Virus record (IMG/VR): IMGVR_UViG_2684622510_000004
Direction: 5' to 3' (one strand)
From: a virus
Lineage: Duplodnaviria; Heunggongvirae; Uroviricota; Caudoviricetes
DNA: 24,154 nucleotides
Shown: in pieces, positions 1 to 12,517 of the stretch
Layout: the number at the start of each line of letters is the position of its first letter
How positions within the stretch are numbered: the stretch's first letter is position 1
Translations under genes and position numbers: made by a program
The notes under the pieces: generated by a model
What the model was told of the DNA's origin: nothing
The model's database searches: none
What the model saw: the letters and a program-made list of their open reading frames with translations, nothing else

Positions 1-1203
1 ATGTCTCTTCGTTTCAGACAAACCTTTACTCTATTTCCTGGCGTTCGACTCAACATTGGCAAGCGTGGAATAAGTGCAAGCATTGGCGTGCCTGGCGCAA
101 CTGTCAATGTTGGTAAAAAAGGGGTTAGAGCAACTGTCGGATTACCGGGCACAGGCTTATCTTATACTACACCTACCTTGCCCTATGATGATGGATACTC
201 AGTTACCAATCCATTAAATCCAGCCCCTACAGAACCTCATTTGGGGTCTGGGTCATCTCCAGAAAATACACCATCGAACGCTAAAATATATATGCCTGTA
301 GCTGGCATGAATGAAATATCCAGCGCTTCGGTAGAAGTCCTTACAAGTACCTCCCTTTTACCTTTACGAGATTTGATTGCTAAAGCACGAGAACAAAGAG
401 CAGAAATAAAAGCAGATCTTCAAGAGGCTCTTGCCGAAGAATCAAAACAAAAAAGCGAGCTAGCTCGACGCAAATCAAGTCTATTCCGTTGGTTTTACAA
501 ACGACGCATCGCAGAACTTGAGACACTACTCCCCCTAACCCAAGCTGAGATATCTCGCCTAGTTTCATGGGAAGACAGCACAAAAATAGCCATAACATTC
601 GAGAGCAGTGATGCTTCACAGCGCGCATATGCAGCGATGGTCCATGCATTTGATATGTTAAAATCGAGTGTCAAAAAATGGGATATTACTGCAGATAAAG
701 CTACAGACCAGTTTGCTGAAAGAACATTAGCAACCCGGTCTGTTAATCGTCACCCAGTTACCTTTGATTTTAGTTCAACGGATCTCATTCAATTTACAGG
801 GCGTGCGATGAGGTTTGAAAATGTGAATGGAGACGATATTTTGCTTTATCCTGGAGTTGCAGTCATACCACGAGCTGATGGAGCATTCGCTCTGATTGAT
901 TTACGCGAATTACAAATTAGTTCAGAATATCTAAGATTCCATGAGGAAGAAGGTGTTCCCAGTGACTCACGCATAGATGGTTATACATGGGCGAAAACGA
1001 ATAAGAATGGCTCACCAGACCGTCGTTTTAAAGATAACTACCAAATCCCTATTTGCATTTATGGAAATATTACTTTCCATTCTCAAACAGGGGTAACTGA
1101 AGAATATATGGTATCAAATGCAGATGCCGCGCACGCCTTTGCTGAGGCAGTAAAACGCTATCAGATTTCACTCACAGAAACAGAAGCGTTGGTACAGGCC
1201 TGA
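1..1203 (+). CDS. DUF4236-domain protein, function unknown
   Basis: 400-aa ORF beginning with ATG at window nt 1. N-terminal ~55 aa (MSLRFRQTFTLFPGVRLNIGKRGISASIGVPGATVNVGKKG...GLPGTGLSYT) matches the glycine-rich DUF4236 signature as I recall it; the rest is unrecognised. Confidence 0.6.
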   Translation: MSLRFRQTFTLFPGVRLNIGKRGISASIGVPGATVNVGKKGVRATVGLPGTGLSYTTPTLPYDDGYSVTNPLNPAPTEPHLGSGSSPENTPSNAKIYMPVAGMNEISSASVEVLTSTSLLPLRDLIAKAREQRAEIKADLQEALAEESKQKSELARRKSSLFRWFYKRRIAELETLLPLTQAEISRLVSWEDSTKIAITFESSDASQRAYAAMVHAFDMLKSSVKKWDITADKATDQFAERTLATRSVNRHPVTFDFSSTDLIQFTGRAMRFENVNGDDILLYPGVAVIPRADGAFALIDLRELQISSEYLRFHEEEGVPSDSRIDGYTWAKTNKNGSPDRRFKDNYQIPICIYGNITFHSQTGVTEEYMVSNADAAHAFAEAVKRYQISLTETEALVQA

Positions 1204-1466
1204 TTTATCGCCGATATGGGGACGAATCGTAGGTAACCCGTTACTTTATTCGTACCCCTTATAATGGGGTGTTAGCCAGCCAGACCCGGCATGATTACTG
1301 CCCCCAGTCGTCCATGATCCGGGGGGTGATGTCACCGGGTCTGGTGGGGCGCTGGTAACCGCTAATAGGGGTCAGGTCAGGCACTTTTGCCGGGACCGTC
1401 TGTAACGTGGATGCCGGTACCTGCTCCCCGTGGTTATCTGGTTAACCCATATACAAGGGAGACAGA
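1204..1466 (+). ncRNA. candidate IS110-family bridge (guide) RNA in the 5' noncoding end of the IS
   Basis: 263-nt GC-rich noncoding stretch upstream of the recombinase with short hairpins (e.g. ccccttataatgggg). In the IS110 subgroup the bridge RNA is encoded at this position (established knowledge, not demonstrated here). Confidence 0.3.
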
Positions 1467-2680
1467 ATGACCGAATCCAGCGATTACGAATCCGTCCAGG
1501 TCTTTATCGGCGTTGATGTCGGTAAAGATACGCATCACGCTGTAGCCATTAATCGTTCAGGTAAACGCCTGTTCGATAAAGCATTACCCAACGACGAAAA
1601 CAAACTCAGGTCGCTAATATCTGACCTGAAACAACATGGTCAGATACTGCTGGTTGTTGATCAGCCAGCTACCATCGGTGCGTTACCTGTCGCCGTTGCC
1701 CGCTCAGAAGGAGTCCTTGTCGGATACCTCCCTGGACTGGCCATGCGCCGCATAGCCGACTTACACGCCGGTGAAGCTAAAACTGATGCTCGTGACGCTG
1801 CCATCATTGCCGAAGCTGCCCGTACCCTGCCTCACGCGCTACGCACGCTGAAACTGGCTGACGAGCAAATCGCCGAACTCTCCATGCTCTGCGGCTTCGA
1901 TGATGATCTTGCCGCACAGACAACGCAGGCCAGCAACCGTATCCGCGGCCTTCTGACCCAGATACATCCGGCACTGGAGCGCGTTCTCGGTCCGAGACTT
2001 GATCACCCGGCGGTACTCGATCTTCTCCAGCGATATCCCTCACCAGAAAAACTCGCTTCGCTGGGTGAGAAGAAGCTGGCAGCCCAGCTCTGCAAACTTG
2101 CGCCTCGTCTGGGTAAACGCCTTGCAGCAGACATAGCTCAGGCACTGGCCGAACAAACCGTCGTCGTTCCCGGCACGAATGCCGCTGCCGTAGTACTGCC
2201 ACGTCTGGCACTCCAGCTCATCACGCTGCGTAAGCAAAGAGACGAGGTGGCGCTTGCGGTAGAACAGCGAGTTCTTGCTCACCCTCTTTACCCGGTCCTG
2301 ACCAGTATGCCCGGAGTCGGTGTCAGGACCGCAGCCAGACTCCTCACCGAGGTCGCCTGCCGCGCCTTCGCCTCTGCCGCGCCTTCGCCTCTGCCGCACA
2401 TCTCGCTGCTTATGCTGGCCTTGCGCCGGTAACTCGGCGATCCGGCTCGTCAATACGCGGTGAGCATCCCTCGCGACGGGGTAATAAAGCTCTCAAACGG
2501 GCGTTGTTCCTGTCGGCCTTCGCCGCGCTCAGGGATCCGCTCTCCAGGGCTTACTACACCCGCAAAATGAGTCAGGGAAAACGACACAATCAGGCGCTTA
2601 TCGCCCTGGCGAGACGACGCTGCGACGTTCTGTTCGCCATGATGCGCGACGGGACTTTTTATACCCCGCAGGCGTCATAA
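1467..2680 (+). pseudogene. IS110-family DEDD transposase/recombinase, frameshifted
   Basis: N-terminal MTESSDYESVQVFIGVDVGKDTHHAVAI... is a typical IS110 DEDD start. The ORF terminates prematurely at 2432. Removing one copy of the 17-bp duplication at 2361-2394 restores the conserved C-terminus ...AFASAAHLAAYAGLAPVTRRSGSS... running to the stop at 2678-2680. Confidence 0.7.
2361..2394. repeat. perfect 17-bp tandem duplication (cgcgccttcgcctctgc x2) inside the transposase gene
   Basis: Read directly: 2361-2377 is identical to 2378-2394. Length is not a multiple of 3, so it frameshifts the gene. Confidence 0.9.
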
Positions 2681-2717
2681 CATGCTTGACAACTTAATAG
2701 GGGCACCCCCCTAGAAC

Positions 2718-2757
2718 AAAAAAAACCTTAAGAACCAGACTATTATGGCTGGTTCTT
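2718..2757 (-). terminator. terminator-like hairpin (stem aagaaccag/ctggttctt) followed by a T8 run on the minus strand
   Basis: Stem 2730-2738 pairs with 2749-2757; A8 run at 2718-2725 on the plus strand gives a U-run after the hairpin on the minus strand. Could be the IS right end or a relic terminator. Confidence 0.35.
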
Positions 2758-2883
2758 GTACGGAGGATTTGTTATTGTACAACTCTTCTATCTGGTATAT
2801 TTACGGATAGAACTGTTCAGGCTACTCAATCCTTTTTAAGTACAAATGAACAGATAGAAATAGTTATATTGCAAGGAGCTATC

Positions 2884-3672
2884 ATGCACACTGAGTATAT
2901 ATGGCGATACCTTGACATAGAGAAATTCTCTATGTTACTCGAACAAAATGCTTTATTTTTTTGCTCAGCAAAAAATTTTGAAGATCCGTTCGAAGGTGAA
3001 TTTGCTTGGGGACATACTGGCTATAAAAAATTCATTGAGACACAGGAAAAACTATGCGCTACTTATGGTGCCGGCATGGACTTAGATCCTTTCATTGCAT
3101 TCAATTTAAAGACACTTAAGGAAATAAGCGAGAGGACATATATAAGTTGCTGGCATTGTAACGAACATGAATCTGAAGCTATGTGGAAGCTGTATTGTAA
3201 AAACCCCGCTAAAGGCGTTGTCATAAAATCAAAGAAAAAAAACCTCCAAAGCCAACTTGAAAATAATAATCTAAACAAACTACAATTAAAACACGTAAAA
3301 TACGTCAAAAATTTCTGGATAAAACAATACAATCCAGAATCAGATGTATTCTTTAACAAGAGACCATCTTTCGAATACGAAAAAGAGTTTAGAGCTATTT
3401 TTCAAGAGAATACCTTTAACACTCCACCTGTAAAGGGAAAACTAGTCCCTGTATCTCTTAATAATCTGTTGGAAGAAATAAGGATTTCACCTTTCGCAGA
3501 TAAGGATTTCAAAAATGAAGTTTTACAAATTTCAAAAAAACATGGACTAGATCTGAAAGTCAAAAACTCTGAAATTGAAATGCATCCCATCATGCATGTT
3601 GAGGAAGAAATAATTGCAGAAGGCCCCAATTGGTATCAGTCAAAAATCAGATTGGCAATACGTGATGCTTAA
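2884..3672 (+). CDS. DUF2971-like hypothetical protein (AT-rich accessory gene)
   Basis: AAGGAG at 2873-2878 with a 5-nt spacer to ATG 2884. N-terminal motif ...LFFCSAKNFEDPFEGEF resembles the DUF2971 'FxDPFE' signature. Visibly AT-rich compared with flanking genes, convergent with tfa. Confidence 0.55.
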   Translation: MHTEYIWRYLDIEKFSMLLEQNALFFCSAKNFEDPFEGEFAWGHTGYKKFIETQEKLCATYGAGMDLDPFIAFNLKTLKEISERTYISCWHCNEHESEAMWKLYCKNPAKGVVIKSKKKNLQSQLENNNLNKLQLKHVKYVKNFWIKQYNPESDVFFNKRPSFEYEKEFRAIFQENTFNTPPVKGKLVPVSLNNLLEEIRISPFADKDFKNEVLQISKKHGLDLKVKNSEIEMHPIMHVEEEIIAEGPNWYQSKIRLAIRDA

Positions 3673-3775: not shown

Positions 3776-4360
3776 TTACTCCATAACAGGGACAGCAGGC
3801 CACTCAATATCAGGTGCAGTTGATGTATCAACACGGTTCAGCAACACCCGATACTTTTTCCAGGCTTCCAGCAACGAGGTTTCTCCCTCCGTTGCGATTT
3901 CCAGATCTGCAGCATCCTGAAGTGGCGCAATATGCTCACTGGCTACCTGCATCAGGCTATTTTTTGTTTCTTCCGCCTCCCGGATCCGGAACAGTTTTTC
4001 TGCTTCTGCATCTTTCACCCAGGTTGTGCCGTTCCACTTCTGAAACTCCCCTTCCGGGGATAACCAGGTGACATTTTCCGGTAATGAGCCGAGTTCAGAA
4101 ATAAATAACGCGTCGCCGGAAGCCACGTCATAGACGGTTTTACCCCGATGGTCTTCAACGAGATGCCACGATGCCTCATCACTGTTGAAAACAGCCACAA
4201 AGCCAGCCGGAATATCTGGCGGTTCAATATCGGTACTGTTTGCTGGCAGACCTGTATGAGGCGGAATATATGCGTCACCTTCACCAATAAATTCATTAGT
4301 TCCGGCCAGCAGATTATAAATTTTTATGGTCCGTGGTTGTTCACTCATTCTGAATGCCAT
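3776..4360 (-). CDS. tfa: tail fiber assembly protein (Tfa family)
   Basis: 194-aa product [34 protein letters not shown]... typical of lambdoid Tfa chaperones. ATG overlaps the stf stop (TAATG) at 4358-4362. Confidence 0.85.
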
Positions 4361-7125
4361 TATGCAAGCCTCACAATGTAGTTAAATGCGATGTTTTTGA
4401 CGGTGTTTTCCGCGTTACCAGCAGCGTTAACGGTGATGGTGTGTCCATGTGAGCCAATCGCAACAGAGTGCGTATGAGCACCAATACCGACAGTATGTGC
4501 GTGAGCACCTGCAGATGCAGCTGTGCCGCTGACACTATGAGTGTGCGCTCCTGCAGCACTTGTATTCACACTGGCCGCAGACACTACCTTATGTACTGAC
4601 CCATTTTGTGACCACTGGCTGACTGCTGATGCGCCTGTGACACTATGAGTATGGTTTCCGGCACTTGCGGCTGTACCGCTCACACTGTGCGTATGCGCCC
4701 CGGTGTTATTCGTGGATTTAGTGCCGTAATCAAACGACGATGTGGTTTTCGTCCCCAAATCCGTACTGGATGCGCTGGCGCTGTGGGTGTGCGATTTAAT
4801 GCCGTCCTGTTCCTGAGACAATACGGCCCGACCACTGGCAGGTTTGCCCTTAATCGTCCAGCCACGCATATCAGGGATCACGCCTGACGGATAAGCGGTT
4901 GCAAGTTTCGGGTAAGCAGATTTGTCAAAAGTCTGCCCCTGCATCAGGGCATAACCAGACGGAACGGTATCTGATGGCCACGGGATTGGTGCGCCAGGCG
5001 GATAAAACTGCTCTGATGGCGTATAGAGTGAATAAACTGTACCGTCCGTTAACCCTTCCGGCTTATTAGCAGAATATGCTGGTGACGTATGAATAGTCAC
5101 GCTGGCATTACTGGTATAATCCCATTGAATATTTACACCAGTCGCATAATTTCCGATTGCAACGTAAATATCGTAAGTATCACCAGATGTATTGACCCAG
5201 GCAAAATTTGTAAACCCTGTCGATGTGCGCTGCCATAAAGCACCAGTAATCCCCTTCGGATTACCATTACCTGCACGCAAAACAAGTTCAGATATACCTG
5301 CCTGTTGAGGTGACCCCACGTTAAATCCCGCGCCACCAATCAACGTAATTGAAACAACAGAACTCGCCTGTGGCATGGTTACCGTTGCTAATTTGAACCA
5401 ACCAGCACCACCGCTGAATGACATTGTTGTTGAGTTAAGCGTACCAATATCTTTCGGCGTCAGTGTTATATCCGCTGAAAGCGCCTTACCATTCACCTTA
5501 CGGGCAGAAGGTACCCGACCATTCGCATTATCATTAGCTGCTTTCACTGCTTTCGGTGTCGCGGCAAGCGTTTCAGATGCGCTGTTGGTTGCACTACTGA
5601 GCTGGACAATTCCTTTTTGTGCTGTCGTAGCGTCCTGAGCGGTATATTTCCCGTTAGCAAGGTCATAGGCTGCCTTTACCGACTTTGGCGTTGCCGCCAG
5701 CATTTCAGATGTGCTGTTGGTCGCGCTGCTGAGCTGAACTATCCCTTTCTGTGCTGTCGTTGCATCCTGTGCGGTGTATTTCCCGTTAGCCAGGTCATAC
5801 GCGGCCTTAACGGCTTTTGGCGTTGCCGCCAGTGACTCGGAAGTGCTGTTAGTCGCACTGCTGAGCTGTACTATCCCCTTTTTCGTCGTGCTCGCATCCT
5901 CAAGCGCCACGGCGGATGCAATATCCTCTGCCCGTTTTGCCGCTGTCTCAGCGCGCGTTGCTGCGGATTCTGCCGTACTTTTGCTCTGTGCTGCCGCTGC
6001 CGCACTGCCAGCAGCCTCTGTCGCCTTCGTGGATGCCGTCGTGGCGCTGCCCCTCGCTGCTGACGCCTGTCTGGTCGCCTCATCTTTTGAAGCAGACGCC
6101 GATGAGGCCGATGACGCCGCCGAACTGGCGGACGATGCGGCAGCCGTTTTTGAGGATTCTGCGCTGGTTTCCGACGCTTTCGCGTTCGTTTCGGATGTCT
6201 TCGCTGCGGAAGCTGACCTCGCTGCTGCGCTGGCCTGTTCAGTGGCTTCGCCAGCCTTCGTTGTGGCTGTTGAAGCGGATGATGCGGCGCTTTCTGCCGA
6301 TTTTCCGGCGGCGATGGCACTGGCTGAGGCCTGTCCGGCACTTGTTGACGCGGCACTGGCAGACGACGCAGCCGCTGTTTTTGAGCCTGCCGCAGCTGAG
6401 GCGCTCTGTCCCGCTGCCGTCTCAGAAGACCTGGCGTTTGTCTCAGACGTCCTTGCCGCCTTCGCGGAATTTCCTGCCGCCGTTGCCGAGGAAGCTGCAC
6501 TACTGGCGCTTGATGATGCGTTCGTTTCTGATGATTTTGCCGCCTCTTTTGAAGCCGACGCATCCCAGGCTGAGGTGGCAGCTTCTGACGCTTTCGTGGT
6601 CGCGGTGGATGCAGAAGTGGCGGCTGATTGTTCTGACGCTGCCGCATTCGTTTCTGACGTTTTCGCCGCACCGGCACTGGTAGCCGCCGCGCTTTTTGAG
6701 GACTCTGCAGCGGCAGCACTTTTTGAGGCTTCAGTGGCCTTTGTTGATGCCGTTCCTGCGCTGGAAGACGCTGACTGAGCCGACGACGCGGCCTGTCCGG
6801 CTGACGTGCTGGCTGCACGTGCTGAATCTGCAGCATCAGTCGCACGGGTTGCCGCCTCACTGGCAGATGTGCTGGCATCACTGGCTGACTTCTTTGCGGC
6901 TGCCGTGTTCTGTGCCACCACGGACGCGTTACGCGCCACCTCTTCCACCATCAGTTCAAAACGACGCAGTGCCTCCGGACGGGCATCATCCTCCGTCATG
7001 GCACCGAGAAAATCATTCAGCGTACCGGGTTGAGAATCTTCATACACGGTGATGGTCCCGGCATGTGACGGCGGGAATCCCTCCACCAACAGAATAACGC
7101 TGTACTGACCGTACTCAACGTCCAT
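4360..7125 (-). CDS. stf: side tail fiber protein (Stf-like), N-terminally truncated remnant
   Basis: 921-aa Ala/Ser-rich product with three 44-aa tail-fibre repeats ([37 protein letters not shown]) and a His-rich [10 protein letters not shown]-terminus. The first in-frame Met (MDVEYGQYS) corresponds to an internal position of full-length Stf, and an in-frame stop lies 5 codons upstream. Confidence 0.8.
5500..5895. repeat. three tandem ~132-bp repeats inside stf
   Basis: Period 132 bp read directly (e.g. gctgttgg at 5581-5588 and 5713-5720; gtgctgtt at 5711-5718 and 5843-5850). These encode the repeated 44-aa tail-fibre units. Confidence 0.75.
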
Positions 7126-7625
7126 GCTGTAACGCCCGGCTTCTCAATAGCTGCCAGCAGCGGGCTAATCCACAGAATGGCCTGACAATACGTTATTGAG
7201 CGGGTGGTAACGGCGCTATCACTGGCTGCGTCAACGTTCCTGGAATCGGTGTGCATTGCGCTGGCACGTAAACGGTTCGCGTAGTTGAGCAGCCCACCAG
7301 CGACATCAGCAGGAACAGGCATATCACAGGTTTTTTCACGACGGAGAATCTCTCGGTATTCGATAACAGTTTTCTCGGTGCCGGTATCAATCAGCGAGTT
7401 AAGACGGTTGGTGTTCTCTGCTACCAGGTTAAACCGGTTGAAGTTGAAGGCTTGGGTAGCTATGACGGTCGCCTGTAGCGCGTTGTCGCTGCGCAGTACC
7501 CGGATGTCACTTTCAGATATGGTCAGTGCTGCATTGCTGCGTGCCAGCAGAACACAGAGCACCGCGATGATAATTACGACAACCACCAGCAGAACCGCAA
7601 TAATCGCAATTTTGTTGGGTTTCAT
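7017..7625 (-). CDS. Rz-like i-spanin; 3' end reads into stf-derived sequence in another frame
   Basis: N-terminal TM anchor ([27 protein letters not shown]) followed by a coiled-coil periplasmic region. Start overlaps the endolysin stop (TGATG). After about codon 160 the ORF is translating the stf junction region. Confidence 0.5.
7193..7339 (-). CDS. Rz1-like o-spanin lipoprotein embedded in the +1 frame of Rz
   Basis: GTG start gives [17 protein letters not shown] (lipobox LVGC) followed by a Pro-rich mature peptide ending ...APLPPAQ, entirely inside Rz. The start codon choice is my inference. Confidence 0.5.
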   Translation of the reverse strand: MKKPVICLFLLMSLVGCSTTRTVYVPAQCTPIPGTLTQPVIAPLPPAQ

Positions 7626-8473: not shown

Positions 8474-9526
8474 TTATTTCCCCACCAGCTCGTTTATCTC
8501 TTTCACCGTCTGGTTAAACCGCTCTGACTCAAGCTCAACACCTAAGGCCCGACGCCCCAGCGCCATTGCTGCTTTTATTGTGGAACCGGATCCCATAAAA
8601 AAATCAGCAACCAGATCACCAGGTCGACTACTGGCATTGATTATTTGCCGGAGCATATTCGCAGGTTTCTCACACGGATGTTTACCCGGGTAGAACTGAA
8701 CGGGTTTATGCATCCAGACATCGGTATAAGGCACGGAGACTGATACGGAGAAATAGCGCCGGAGAGATTTAAACTCATCCAGCAATTCAGAATATTTGCG
8801 ATTCAGTGAATTATAAGATGCCACCAGTTGGTGGTGTGGTTGTTCCAGTTGTTGTTCCTGAAACTTCTCTGCCGCTATACGGGAAAACAGTGCCTGTAAC
8901 TTCCGGTAGTCAGCCTCATTCGGCAACTGCCACTGACTGGCACCAAACCAGTGGGAAACCATATTTTTCTTACCTGTGGCTTCGGCAATCTGTTTTGCCG
9001 TTATACCCAGTTCGGCACGAGCATCCCTGAAATACGATATCAGCGGTGCCATTATGTGCTGTTTGAGTTCCCTTTCTTTTGCCGCATAGCCGTCACTTTT
9101 GCCGCGATATGGCCCCTGGTAATGTTCAGCAAACAGAACGCGCTCTGTGGCAGGAAAATATGCGCGCAAACTTTCTTTATTACACCCATTCCAACGTCCG
9201 GACGGCTTCGCCCAGATGATATGGTTAAGCACATTGAAACGTTCACGCATCATGATCTCGATATCAGATGCCAGGCGATGTCCACAGAACAGGTAAAGGC
9301 TTCCGGCAGGTTTCAACACCCGCCAGAACTGGGCCAGACAGTGGTCCAGCCACTTAAGGTAATCTTCGTCCCCTTTCCACTGATTGTCCCAGCCGTTGGG
9401 CTTCACTTTGAAGTACGGTGGATCGGTAACAATCAGATCAATGGAGTCATCAGGCAGGGACTGAATAAAATGCAGGCAATCAGCGTTGATTAAATCAACA
9501 CTGTTTATTTTTACAGTATTTTTCAT
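8474..9526 (-). CDS. DNA N6-adenine methyltransferase (orphan, phage-type)
   Basis: 350 aa with a DPPY catalytic motif near the N-terminus (VTDPPYF) and an AdoMet-binding FxGxG motif near the C-terminus (DFFMGSGST). Confidence 0.85.
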
Positions 9527-11521: not shown

Positions 11522-12517
11522 TCAGGCCAGCACGCCAATTGCCAGCGCACGATCGATAAAACGAAATATCAACTCCAGCTGGGAGCCATACTTCTCTTCA
11601 AATGCCACGGTATCCGCATGCAGCTCGTCGTGATGCTTTCTGCACAAAGGCAACACAAAGAGGTCATGTGCTTTTGTACCCATTCCACCCTGACCGTGGC
11701 CTATCAGGTGGTGGGGATCATCAGCAGGCTTTCCACAACATGCACACGGCTGAGTCTTAACCCAGCGCGTGTACTTTTCATTAACCCAACGGCGACGTTT
11801 GGGGCGTAACATAAAAGACTCCGGCGACTCCGGATCCACTTCCAGCGCCAGCACCTTTTTCGCTTTATCCTGGATGATGCTGGTGGCAGGAACCGAAGGA
11901 ACAAGGTCACTTTCCCGGGTGACAGACGGCAGAACAGGCTTCGGTAATCTCAGTGCCTTACGGGCTGCACTTTCCGGTAAGGCATCCGCCAGGTCATTAC
12001 GAACCAGCCACCAGCACAGTTCCGGCATTGTCACAACGTGACTATCATCAAAACCGAGATCACGGCGCACAACAGATAAAACCCAGCGGGCACAGTTATC
12101 CGTTGCCATTGATTCCAGCCGTTCCGTGAACTGGTCACGCAACTGGTTATCGCAGTGCCAGCACAGACGGATTGCGCCCGGCGCATGGCGCGTTGTGGTC
12201 ATGTTTTCGCTGTGCCAGTCGGAGTGAGGCCACTGACAGCCTTTTTCACGAAGTAACCAGCTTTCAAGACATTCCACGCCACCAGCACGACGGATCACTG
12301 CCTCATTGCGGAACACGGCCCGAACGGCAGGATCATCCGCCAGCGGTTGTGATGCTGCCGGAACGGCACCACTGGCGAAACATGAATAACGTTCCGGCTC
12401 AGGCTCCAGCAGGACACGCCCCTGCATAAACAGGGGCATCAGCTCTGAACCTGGTCTGAACAATACGATCCCCATACGCGGGGCAATTTCAGGGGTCAGT
12501 AGTGCTCTCACGGTCAC
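11522..12517 (-). CDS. DUF968-like nin-region protein with C-terminal Cys/His (HNH-like) motif
   Basis: 331 aa (GTG start); C-terminus ...CACCGKPADDPHHLIGHGQGG...LCRKHHDELH. Family assignment from memory. Confidence 0.45.
   Translation of the reverse strand: MTVRALLTPEIAPRMGIVLFRPGSELMPLFMQGRVLLEPEPERYSCFASGAVPAASQPLADDPAVRAVFRNEAVIRRAGGVECLESWLLREKGCQWPHSDWHSENMTTTRHAPGAIRLCWHCDNQLRDQFTERLESMATDNCARWVLSVVRRDLGFDDSHVVTMPELCWWLVRNDLADALPESAARKALRLPKPVLPSVTRESDLVPSVPATSIIQDKAKKVLALEVDPESPESFMLRPKRRRWVNEKYTRWVKTQPCACCGKPADDPHHLIGHGQGGMGTKAHDLFVLPLCRKHHDELHADTVAFEEKYGSQLELIFRFIDRALAIGVLA

Follow-up and report, generated by a model that had tools for sequence, protein, structure and literature searches.

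In Stx phages the interval between the antiterminator gene Q and the lysis genes carries stx. A single gene with antiphage activity has been described in Lactococcus, where the DUF2971 gene Aristaios forms an abortive-infection system by itself (PMC11381338), and the DUF2971 family is regarded as ADP-ribosyltransferase (ART)-like and related to DarT/AbiGi (PMC12522546). Here we analyzed a stretch of 24,154 nucleotides from a virus of the Caudoviricetes (IMG/VR record IMGVR_UViG_2684622510_000004). This whole stretch, in the following called the window, is a defective E. coli lambdoid prophage integrated at thrW. Its first open reading frame (ORF), at 1-1203, encodes a DUF4236 protein of 400 aa and is followed by an insertion sequence (IS) and a DUF2971 gene. 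The DUF4236 gene is an autonomous accessory unit ('moron') of a very large uncharacterised family and is located proximal to the attachment site (att), beyond the tail-fibre genes. The overall explanation that we favour, and consider probable, is that an autonomous single-gene moron unit is carried as cargo of the thrW prophage and was stacked beside DUF2971. Less certain within this explanation is a phage-conflict role that the protein may play on its own.

The DUF4236 gene and its family

Pfam DUF4236 (PF14020) matched residues 3-56 over the full length of the model (E 3e-21, 76.1 bits at a cut-off of 27) and covered just 14% of the 400-aa protein. For residues 57-400 no Pfam match was found, and a separate Pfam scan of residues 106-400 was empty as well. 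This bears out an earlier reading of the same DNA, here referred to as the sequence-only reading, which had described a DUF4236-type N-terminus followed by an unrecognised C-terminal part. The profile phrog_17982 matched the protein from end to end (residues 1-400 vs profile positions 1-390/390, E 3.4e-194).

In total, 915 homologues of the protein were scored at E <= 1e-5. The ratio of nonsynonymous to synonymous substitution rates (dN/dS) against orthologues was 0.05-0.11, even at dS of ~1-2, indicating strong purifying selection. Based on this ratio and on the number of homologues, the ORF at 1-1203 is regarded as a real gene and not as a chance frame. It was intact in 35 of the 36 copies found on viral contigs. 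Identities among Enterobacterales genera ranged from 87 to 93% and were 65-70% in Rhodobacterales. The family is spread over Proteobacteria, Bacteroidota, Chlorobiota and a cyanophage, and the C-terminal domain alone retrieved 2,906 clusters at 50% identity. The GC content of the gene (43.0%) was lower than that of the remaining window (49.2%) and higher than that of the DUF2971 gene (34.2%). Copies of the gene had a GC content of 42-46% vs 48-58% in their flanks, and the gene was below its flanks in every host examined.

The structure of the protein was modelled by AlphaFold on an alignment of 80 sequences (predicted local distance difference test, pLDDT, 85; predicted template modelling score, pTM, 0.73). 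An earlier model from 19 close homologues was unusably poor (pLDDT 56) and was replaced by this one. The gene and the parts of its product are:

1..1203, (+) strand: intact DUF4236 / phrog_17982 ORF, 400 aa, ATG at 1, stop codon 1201-1203
7..168, (+) strand: DUF4236 domain, residues 3-56, Gly-rich and basic, with ~9-residue repeats
169..330, (+) strand: variable linker, residues ~57-110, predicted to be disordered (pLDDT <50 at residues 63-92)
349..579, (+) strand: long antiparallel helical hairpin, residues 117-193
583..1200, (+) strand: conserved C-terminal domain, residues 195-400 (pLDDT >90)

The DUF4236 segment was modelled as a six-strand beta-meander (strands 7-60, pLDDT 63-74). This N-terminal segment alone is common to at least 10 PHROG families whose C-termini are unrelated, in the manner of a portable module. 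The linker was the only poorly conserved stretch in the protein alignments. In the model, the C-terminal domain is composed of an alpha/beta subdomain and a subsequent beta-rich domain capped by a long C-terminal helix. It carries the motif TWAKxNKNGSPDRRF. Within the 80-sequence alignment, which included sequences down to 30% identity, 18 residues were invariant (W227, R250, D279, P284, F313, E315, P320, D322, W330, N334, K335, G337, D340, R342, N346, Y354, G364 and S372). No convincing HKD or PD-(D/E)xK motifs were recognized by eye in the C-terminal domain, and a PDB profile search with the protein sequence returned coiled-coil noise only. Relatives bear different C-terminal add-ons, namely SH3_3/SH3_4, a Zn-ribbon, HIRAN or DnaJ together with FtsK-gamma.

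One cassette or two cargo units

The DUF2971-like gene is orientated in the same direction as the DUF4236 gene and the IS110-family element ISEc20 lies between them at 1235-2704, as the sequence-only reading had noticed. It had proposed that both genes once formed a single cassette which was split by the IS. The 2.2-kb pair was searched at the megablast level in 5,426 complete E. coli genomes; that reading had suggested looking for IS-free alleles. The pair was present in 122 genomes (~2%) with at least 95% identity, and all 122 carriers covered at least 80% of it. Genomes with just one gene of the pair were not found at the megablast level. IS-free alleles were indeed available; they were 99.7-99.9% identical and the two genes were adjacent, on the same strand and 261-280 nt apart. 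None of the 5,426 genomes carried the IS at this site. Thus the pair was formerly contiguous and was split by the IS, as proposed, but the idea of one functional cassette found no support.

The best IS-free allele was that of NZ_CP126934 (locus L001), located at the thrW site. The corresponding RefSeq protein of the IS-free allele (WP_001616129.1, 'DUF4236 domain-containing protein') was 99.9% identical. In this allele the thrW 3' end is repeated over 64 bp at 5.7 kb to the left of the DUF4236 gene, beside a yagP remnant and paoDCBA. Because this distal repeat lies beyond the gene, the gene is inside an att-bounded island, and the left prophage end that the sequence-only reading wanted to reach by extension could be read here. 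The interval between the gene and the distal att (L001 7019-11373) contained a 604-aa protein matching PADLOC PDC-S71 (E 9e-218), a fragment of an HNH (type IV restriction-like) gene and a gene for a DUF6602 protein with a PD-(D/E)xK match. The three appear to make up a small defence island within this end of the prophage.

Overall, the pair was verified at three prophage sites: thrW (L001), icd (L002, L004) and proL (L003). It was always found beside the tail-fibre assembly gene tfa, and the left neighbours differed at each site. The segment shared by the sites begins 277-365 nt upstream of the ATG and continues through DUF4236, DUF2971 and tfa into the 3' part of stf. It is a typical recombining tail-fibre-end module, and within E. 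coli the pair behaves as one linked block. The assignment of the gene to distal prophage cargo, and not to the core chromosome, is confirmed by its presence in only 122/5,426 genomes, by the three prophage sites and by its position inside the thrW repeats.

Outside E. coli the DUF4236 gene was found without DUF2971. About 50 non-E. coli homologues (51-96% identity) were examined and none had DUF2971 beside it. No DUF2971 neighbour was found in about 20 species-representative genomes. Among 36 full-length loci from IMG/VR, DUF2971 was located downstream only in the 6 from E. coli and was missing in 30/30 others. Solitary full-length homologues with 65-93% identity were present in Klebsiella, Serratia, Paracoccus, Pectobacterium and Edwardsiella. 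The neighbours in Klebsiella and Raoultella are ssrA on one side and a Peptidase_S74 tail-fibre gene plus gpJ on the other. In Serratia it forms a one-gene islet between lptG and a DUF6434 / beta-lactamase-family pair, and in Paracoccus a one-gene islet between an Impact_N gene and recJ. The Pectobacterium gene shares an integrase island with a homologue of PifA. Edwardsiella has the gene on the opposite strand, with antiterminator Q on one side and the holins on the other, which is the Q-to-lysis interval that carries stx in Stx phages. A DUF4236 gene is also carried by a prophage remnant next to hin in Salmonella 4,[5],12:i:- (PMC8049487). All-against-all clustering of the neighbours revealed no conserved partner gene. 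In Citrobacter, Cypionkella and Tabrizicola (L008 6923-7507, L011 7050-7640, L013 3477-4064), a small serine recombinase (resolvase/invertase, ~195 aa) was observed upstream of the gene in divergent orientation. At these 3 loci it was taken as phage invertase context, and it was rejected as a partner.

The DUF2971 gene has its own distribution as well. Its closest relative (80% identity, Enterobacter soli) is a solitary gene that follows ogr where a P2-like prophage ends, and relatives from Pseudomonas (50-54% identity) have no DUF4236 gene beside them. In the proL-site prophage DUF2971 was split into two ORFs (L003 10479-11203), and it was frameshifted in 3 of the 6 E. coli proviruses from IMG/VR (L065-L067); DUF4236 was intact in all of these. 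Of the 122 E. coli genomes, 40 were sampled: DUF4236 was annotated as intact in 40/40, and DUF2971 was missing or annotated as 'hypothetical protein' in 13/40.

A leader of ~100-145 nt accompanies the DUF4236 gene in all Enterobacterales contexts (L001 11895-12000). Across the genera its conservation exceeds that of the synonymous sites of the ORF. It holds a conserved promoter-like element (TTCACC-16-TATCAT) and a near-invariant stretch before the ribosome-binding site. A conserved small upstream ORF was not present and no convincing conserved RNA structure was found in the leader (-1.5 kcal/mol). Being conserved without a convincing RNA fold, the leader may be an operator or promoter region.

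The stop codon is followed by a fragment resembling the 3' half of a tRNA (window 1204-1234 + 2705-2715), which is degenerate in E. coli. The Klebsiella version (L037 7225-7262) shows a T-arm GGTTCAAATCC ... CCGACCA and reached only 16 bits with the tRNA model. This fragment may be an old att scar; its interpretation as an ssrA att copy was rejected. Further downstream, a hairpin stem is located at 2730-2757 in E. coli (-15.6 kcal/mol), where the U-tract of a terminator has been lost. In Klebsiella and Pseudenterobacter, hairpin and U7 together make up an intrinsic terminator of the canonical type (energies of -19 and -16.5 kcal/mol; z about -5). The 3' flanks of these two genera are homologous to E. 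coli through the hairpin and the homology stops right after it, which looks like a putative junction with the DUF2971 module.

Upstream of the gene, the E. coli modules contain a degenerate 3' end of ssrA (tmRNA) and a ATCATGATTGG junction, 145-185 nt before the ATG (L001 ~11820-11858). In Klebsiella and Pseudenterobacter the gene is found ~290 nt after a real ssrA. This remnant and the position in the two other genera suggest that the E. coli module probably stems from a phage integrating at ssrA, from its end next to att.

A co-transcribed two-gene system of DUF4236 and DUF2971 that was broken by the IS, e.g. a sensor or regulator with an ART toxin or a toxin-antitoxin pair, seems unlikely to us. 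It would account for the finding that both genes are adjacent and on the same strand in 122/122 E. coli carriers of either gene, and a simple scan detected no sigma-70-like promoter in the 261-280 nt gap. As the intergenic hairpin of E. coli has lost its U-tract, read-through into DUF2971 and some functional coupling are possible in this species, which weighs against a complete independence of both genes. However, the linkage is confined to one clade with at least 95% identity and is absent from the other genera and from the 30 non-E. coli viral contigs. The GC content of the genes differs (43% vs 34%), DUF2971 is frameshifted in L003 and L065-L067 next to an intact DUF4236, and relatives of DUF2971 at 80% and ~52% identity are solitary. 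Moreover, DUF2971 as independent cargo fits a family that includes the single-gene system Aristaios, in which a DUF2971 protein acts alone (PMC11381338). Far less probable still, and refuted as far as sequence data go, are two other readings of the DUF4236 gene: that it belongs to the core or host chromosome beyond the prophage, or that it is a functionless hitch-hiker in decay. The window begins at the DUF4236 ATG with the upstream region and the prophage end outside, so the window alone cannot place the gene inside the prophage. Many IMG/VR provirus records likewise begin exactly at this ATG, and for this reason the left edge is probably a boundary set by the provirus caller and not the prophage end. 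Several facts stand against a core gene or a hitch-hiker. Just 2% of the complete E. coli genomes have the gene, and it was found at three different prophage sites; in the allele of 99.9% identity the thrW direct repeats enclose it; the dN/dS is low and the ORF is nearly always intact.

DUF4236 and DUF2971 hence appear as two independent single-gene cargo units of one hotspot that were recently separated by ISEc20. In this scenario the DUF4236 unit would travel with its own leader (-10-like TATCAT) and its own hairpin terminator. In the E. coli lineage it would have been stacked next to a separately acquired DUF2971/ART-like gene, and the block composed of leader, DUF4236, DUF2971, tfa and the 3' end of stf would then have spread among lambdoid prophages by recombination. 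Finally, the now-defective ISEc20 inserted 31 nt after the stop codon, within the tRNA-like scar.

Prophage, ISEc20 and the DUF2971 neighbour

Early genes of the cII, O and Q-region type are present in the window. The features besides the DUF4236 gene are:

1204..1234, (+) strand: original 3' flank, its first 31 nt, with the left portion of the tRNA-3'-half-like scar
1235..2704, (+) strand: ISEc20 (IS110 family) insertion, boundaries +/- 3 nt from comparison with the IS-free allele
1467-2432, (+) strand: transposase ORF, DEDD transposase domain (E 5e-49)
2705..2883, (+) strand: rest of the original intergenic region with the ACCCCCCTA target, hairpin and Shine-Dalgarno sequence
2884..3672, (+) strand: DUF2971 (ART-like) gene, 262 aa, Pfam DUF2971 30.9 bits (cut-off 22)
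3776..4360, (-) strand: tail-fibre assembly gene (tfa), convergent with the cargo genes, Pfam Caudo_TAP (E 1e-43)
4360-7125, (-) strand: tail-fibre gene, N-terminally truncated
7017-7625, (-) strand: Rz-like spanin ORF after the lysis genes, overlapping the start of the truncated tail-fibre gene
8474-9526, (-) strand: N6/N4 DNA methyltransferase, type II-like, PADLOC type II methyltransferase model (E 2e-151)
21533..22696: integrase, beside thrW
22711..22786, (-) strand: tRNA-Thr (thrW), prophage integration site, with proA beyond

Head and tail genes were not found in the window, and the prophage is considered defective because the whole head and tail module is deleted. Since no restriction partner was seen near the methyltransferase gene, the enzyme is likely an orphan and phage-protective. 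Inside tfa a match to Rfam IS009 (RF02111) was observed at 3819-4017 (-) with 225 bits.

The ISEc20 copy was inserted 31 nt past the DUF4236 stop codon and adds 1.47 kb between the DUF2971 gene and anything upstream. Over its whole length it was 98.8% identical to annotated ISEc20 copies. Compared with the reference ISEc20, a 17-bp tandem duplication (CTGCCGCGCCTTCGCCT x2) at 2357-2373 leads to a frameshift of the transposase, resulting in 321 aa vs 398 aa. Due to this truncation the copy has probably lost its mobility, provided that the duplication is not an artefact of assembly. By its domain and identity the element belongs to ISEc20, but an intact transposase is lacking and it is thus a defective member. 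It lies immediately 5' of the target ACCCCCCTA (2705-2713) with no obvious target duplication. The reference ISEc20 copy, that of E. coli O111:H- 11128, is also located immediately 5' of ACCCCCCTA (L061 1554-1562), and both copies adjoin phage tail-fibre genes. As both copies abut the same sequence, a sequence-specific target is suggested for ISEc20, as expected for the IS110 family. The IS-split pair itself is ordinary prophage mosaicism.

The likely start codon of the DUF2971 gene is the ATG at 2884, following a Shine-Dalgarno sequence AAGGAG (2873-2878), and the resulting length of 262 aa is that found in database clusters. The gene matched PDC-S31, a candidate single-gene system of PADLOC (E 1.4e-16), on which a literature search found nothing. 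By eye, the Tyr of TYISCW and an ExE-type stretch FEYEKEF were assigned in its product, in line with the published features of the family (PMC12522546, PMC11381338). A second, different DUF2971 gene (318 aa, L003 17933-18889) was observed in the proL-site prophage remnant, where it is solitary and located beside the integrase.

Putative function and comparison with known systems

In the lysogen, the DUF4236 protein might be a phage-conflict factor for exclusion or defence that acts alone, without needing DUF2971. We propose this role tentatively and see it as a real possibility at somewhat less than even chance. It is indicated by the solo mobility of the gene, its moron and hotspot positions, its foreign GC content, the purifying selection, the modular architecture and the defence neighbours. 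The latter were PDC-S71, PD-(D/E)xK and PDC-S31 in E. coli, PifA in Pectobacterium and, among 149 non-redundant neighbours, PDC-M11A, PDC-S15, LmuA/B, mad3 and RdrB. In such a protein the basic Gly-rich beta-meander would be a shared module for targeting or oligomerisation, the helical hairpin a stalk for dimerisation and the C-terminal domain, rich in invariant residues, a sensing or effector module.

Several observations weigh against a conflict role. The census of neighbours had no matched background, and weak neighbour hits (PtuA, possibly one LmuB) may be RecN-type SMC (structural maintenance of chromosomes) proteins. Searched against PADLOC-DB 2.0, the DUF4236 protein hit 0 families at E <= 0.01, and it matched neither NCBIfam nor any functional Pfam family. 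The structure prediction of the C-terminal domain that the sequence-only reading had recommended gave a confident model (pLDDT >90), but no solved fold matched it: Foldseek vs PDB yielded no significant match (best E 0.088), and its best matches were weakly pleckstrin homology (PH)-like (IQSEC2, Sin1, Rtt106 and MTMR6; E 0.09-0.5, probability <=0.77). The literature on DUF4236 consisted of one incidental mention with nothing functional published, and a literature search on PF14020 returned Plasmodium gene identifiers only. In a Microcystis phage a homologue is located after terL, inside the packaging/structural block. Finally, a cellular role other than defence could likewise explain why Serratia and Paracoccus carry solitary copies between housekeeping genes.

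Such a role of the protein for phage or host, e.g. as a regulator associated with DNA or the envelope, as a factor in lysogenic conversion or as an adaptor linked to a chaperone, is doubtful when taken by itself and yet nearly as likely as the conflict role. It is in line with the fusion of relatives to the DNA-binding HIRAN and FtsK-gamma as well as to DnaJ and SH3_3, with the chromosomal islets and the Microcystis copy just mentioned, and with the missing match in the library of defence models. It agrees less well with the recurrence of the gene at moron and defence hotspots beside known or candidate defence genes, with its patchy, horizontally transferred distribution (122/5,426 E. coli genomes) and with a GC content foreign to its hosts.

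Returning to the autonomous moron unit with a phage-conflict role, the family characterized by DUF4236, hairpin and C-terminal domain could be an unrecognised and widespread single-protein anti-phage or conflict system with a new effector or sensor fold, which would spread as a moron together with its own conserved regulatory leader. We consider this wider proposal possible, with more doubt than the role of the individual protein. The DUF4236 protein is already catalogued, yet functionally blank, very widespread, phage-borne and unmatched in its fold. It is among the more widespread and better conserved phage-borne proteins without function, structural relative or much literature, and its gene sits where prophages keep defence and exclusion genes. 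Cloning and testing are easy, as only one gene is involved and its regulatory region comes with it. Should the protein turn out to act in defence or exclusion, the phage-conflict proteins would gain a new fold along with DUF4236, an N-terminal module that is very common.

Compared with known entries and systems, Pfam DUF4236 and phrog_17982 both match the protein, yet they are catalogue entries without function, and the helical hairpin and the conserved C-terminal domain have no family model in Pfam or NCBIfam. With Aristaios and PDC-S31 it is the neighbour gene that shares the DUF2971 match and the Y/ExE motifs, and this likeness does not extend to DUF4236. The DUF2971 protein of the window, known here from its sequence, is only distantly related to the Lactococcus protein.

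The closest likeness of the DUF4236 gene is to lambdoid morons, att-proximal (b-region) cargo and hotspots of the P2 ogr-att type. Common to them are the single-gene make-up with an accompanying leader and a putative terminator, a lower GC content, an orientation opposite to the late operon, the interchange between phages and the neighbourhood of defence genes. The location is shared as well, either in the interval from the tail-fibre genes to att or in that from Q to the lysis genes. Apart from its role, which for this locus is predicted from the sequence, the DUF4236 gene differs from these in that it also occurs as a one-gene islet outside prophages.

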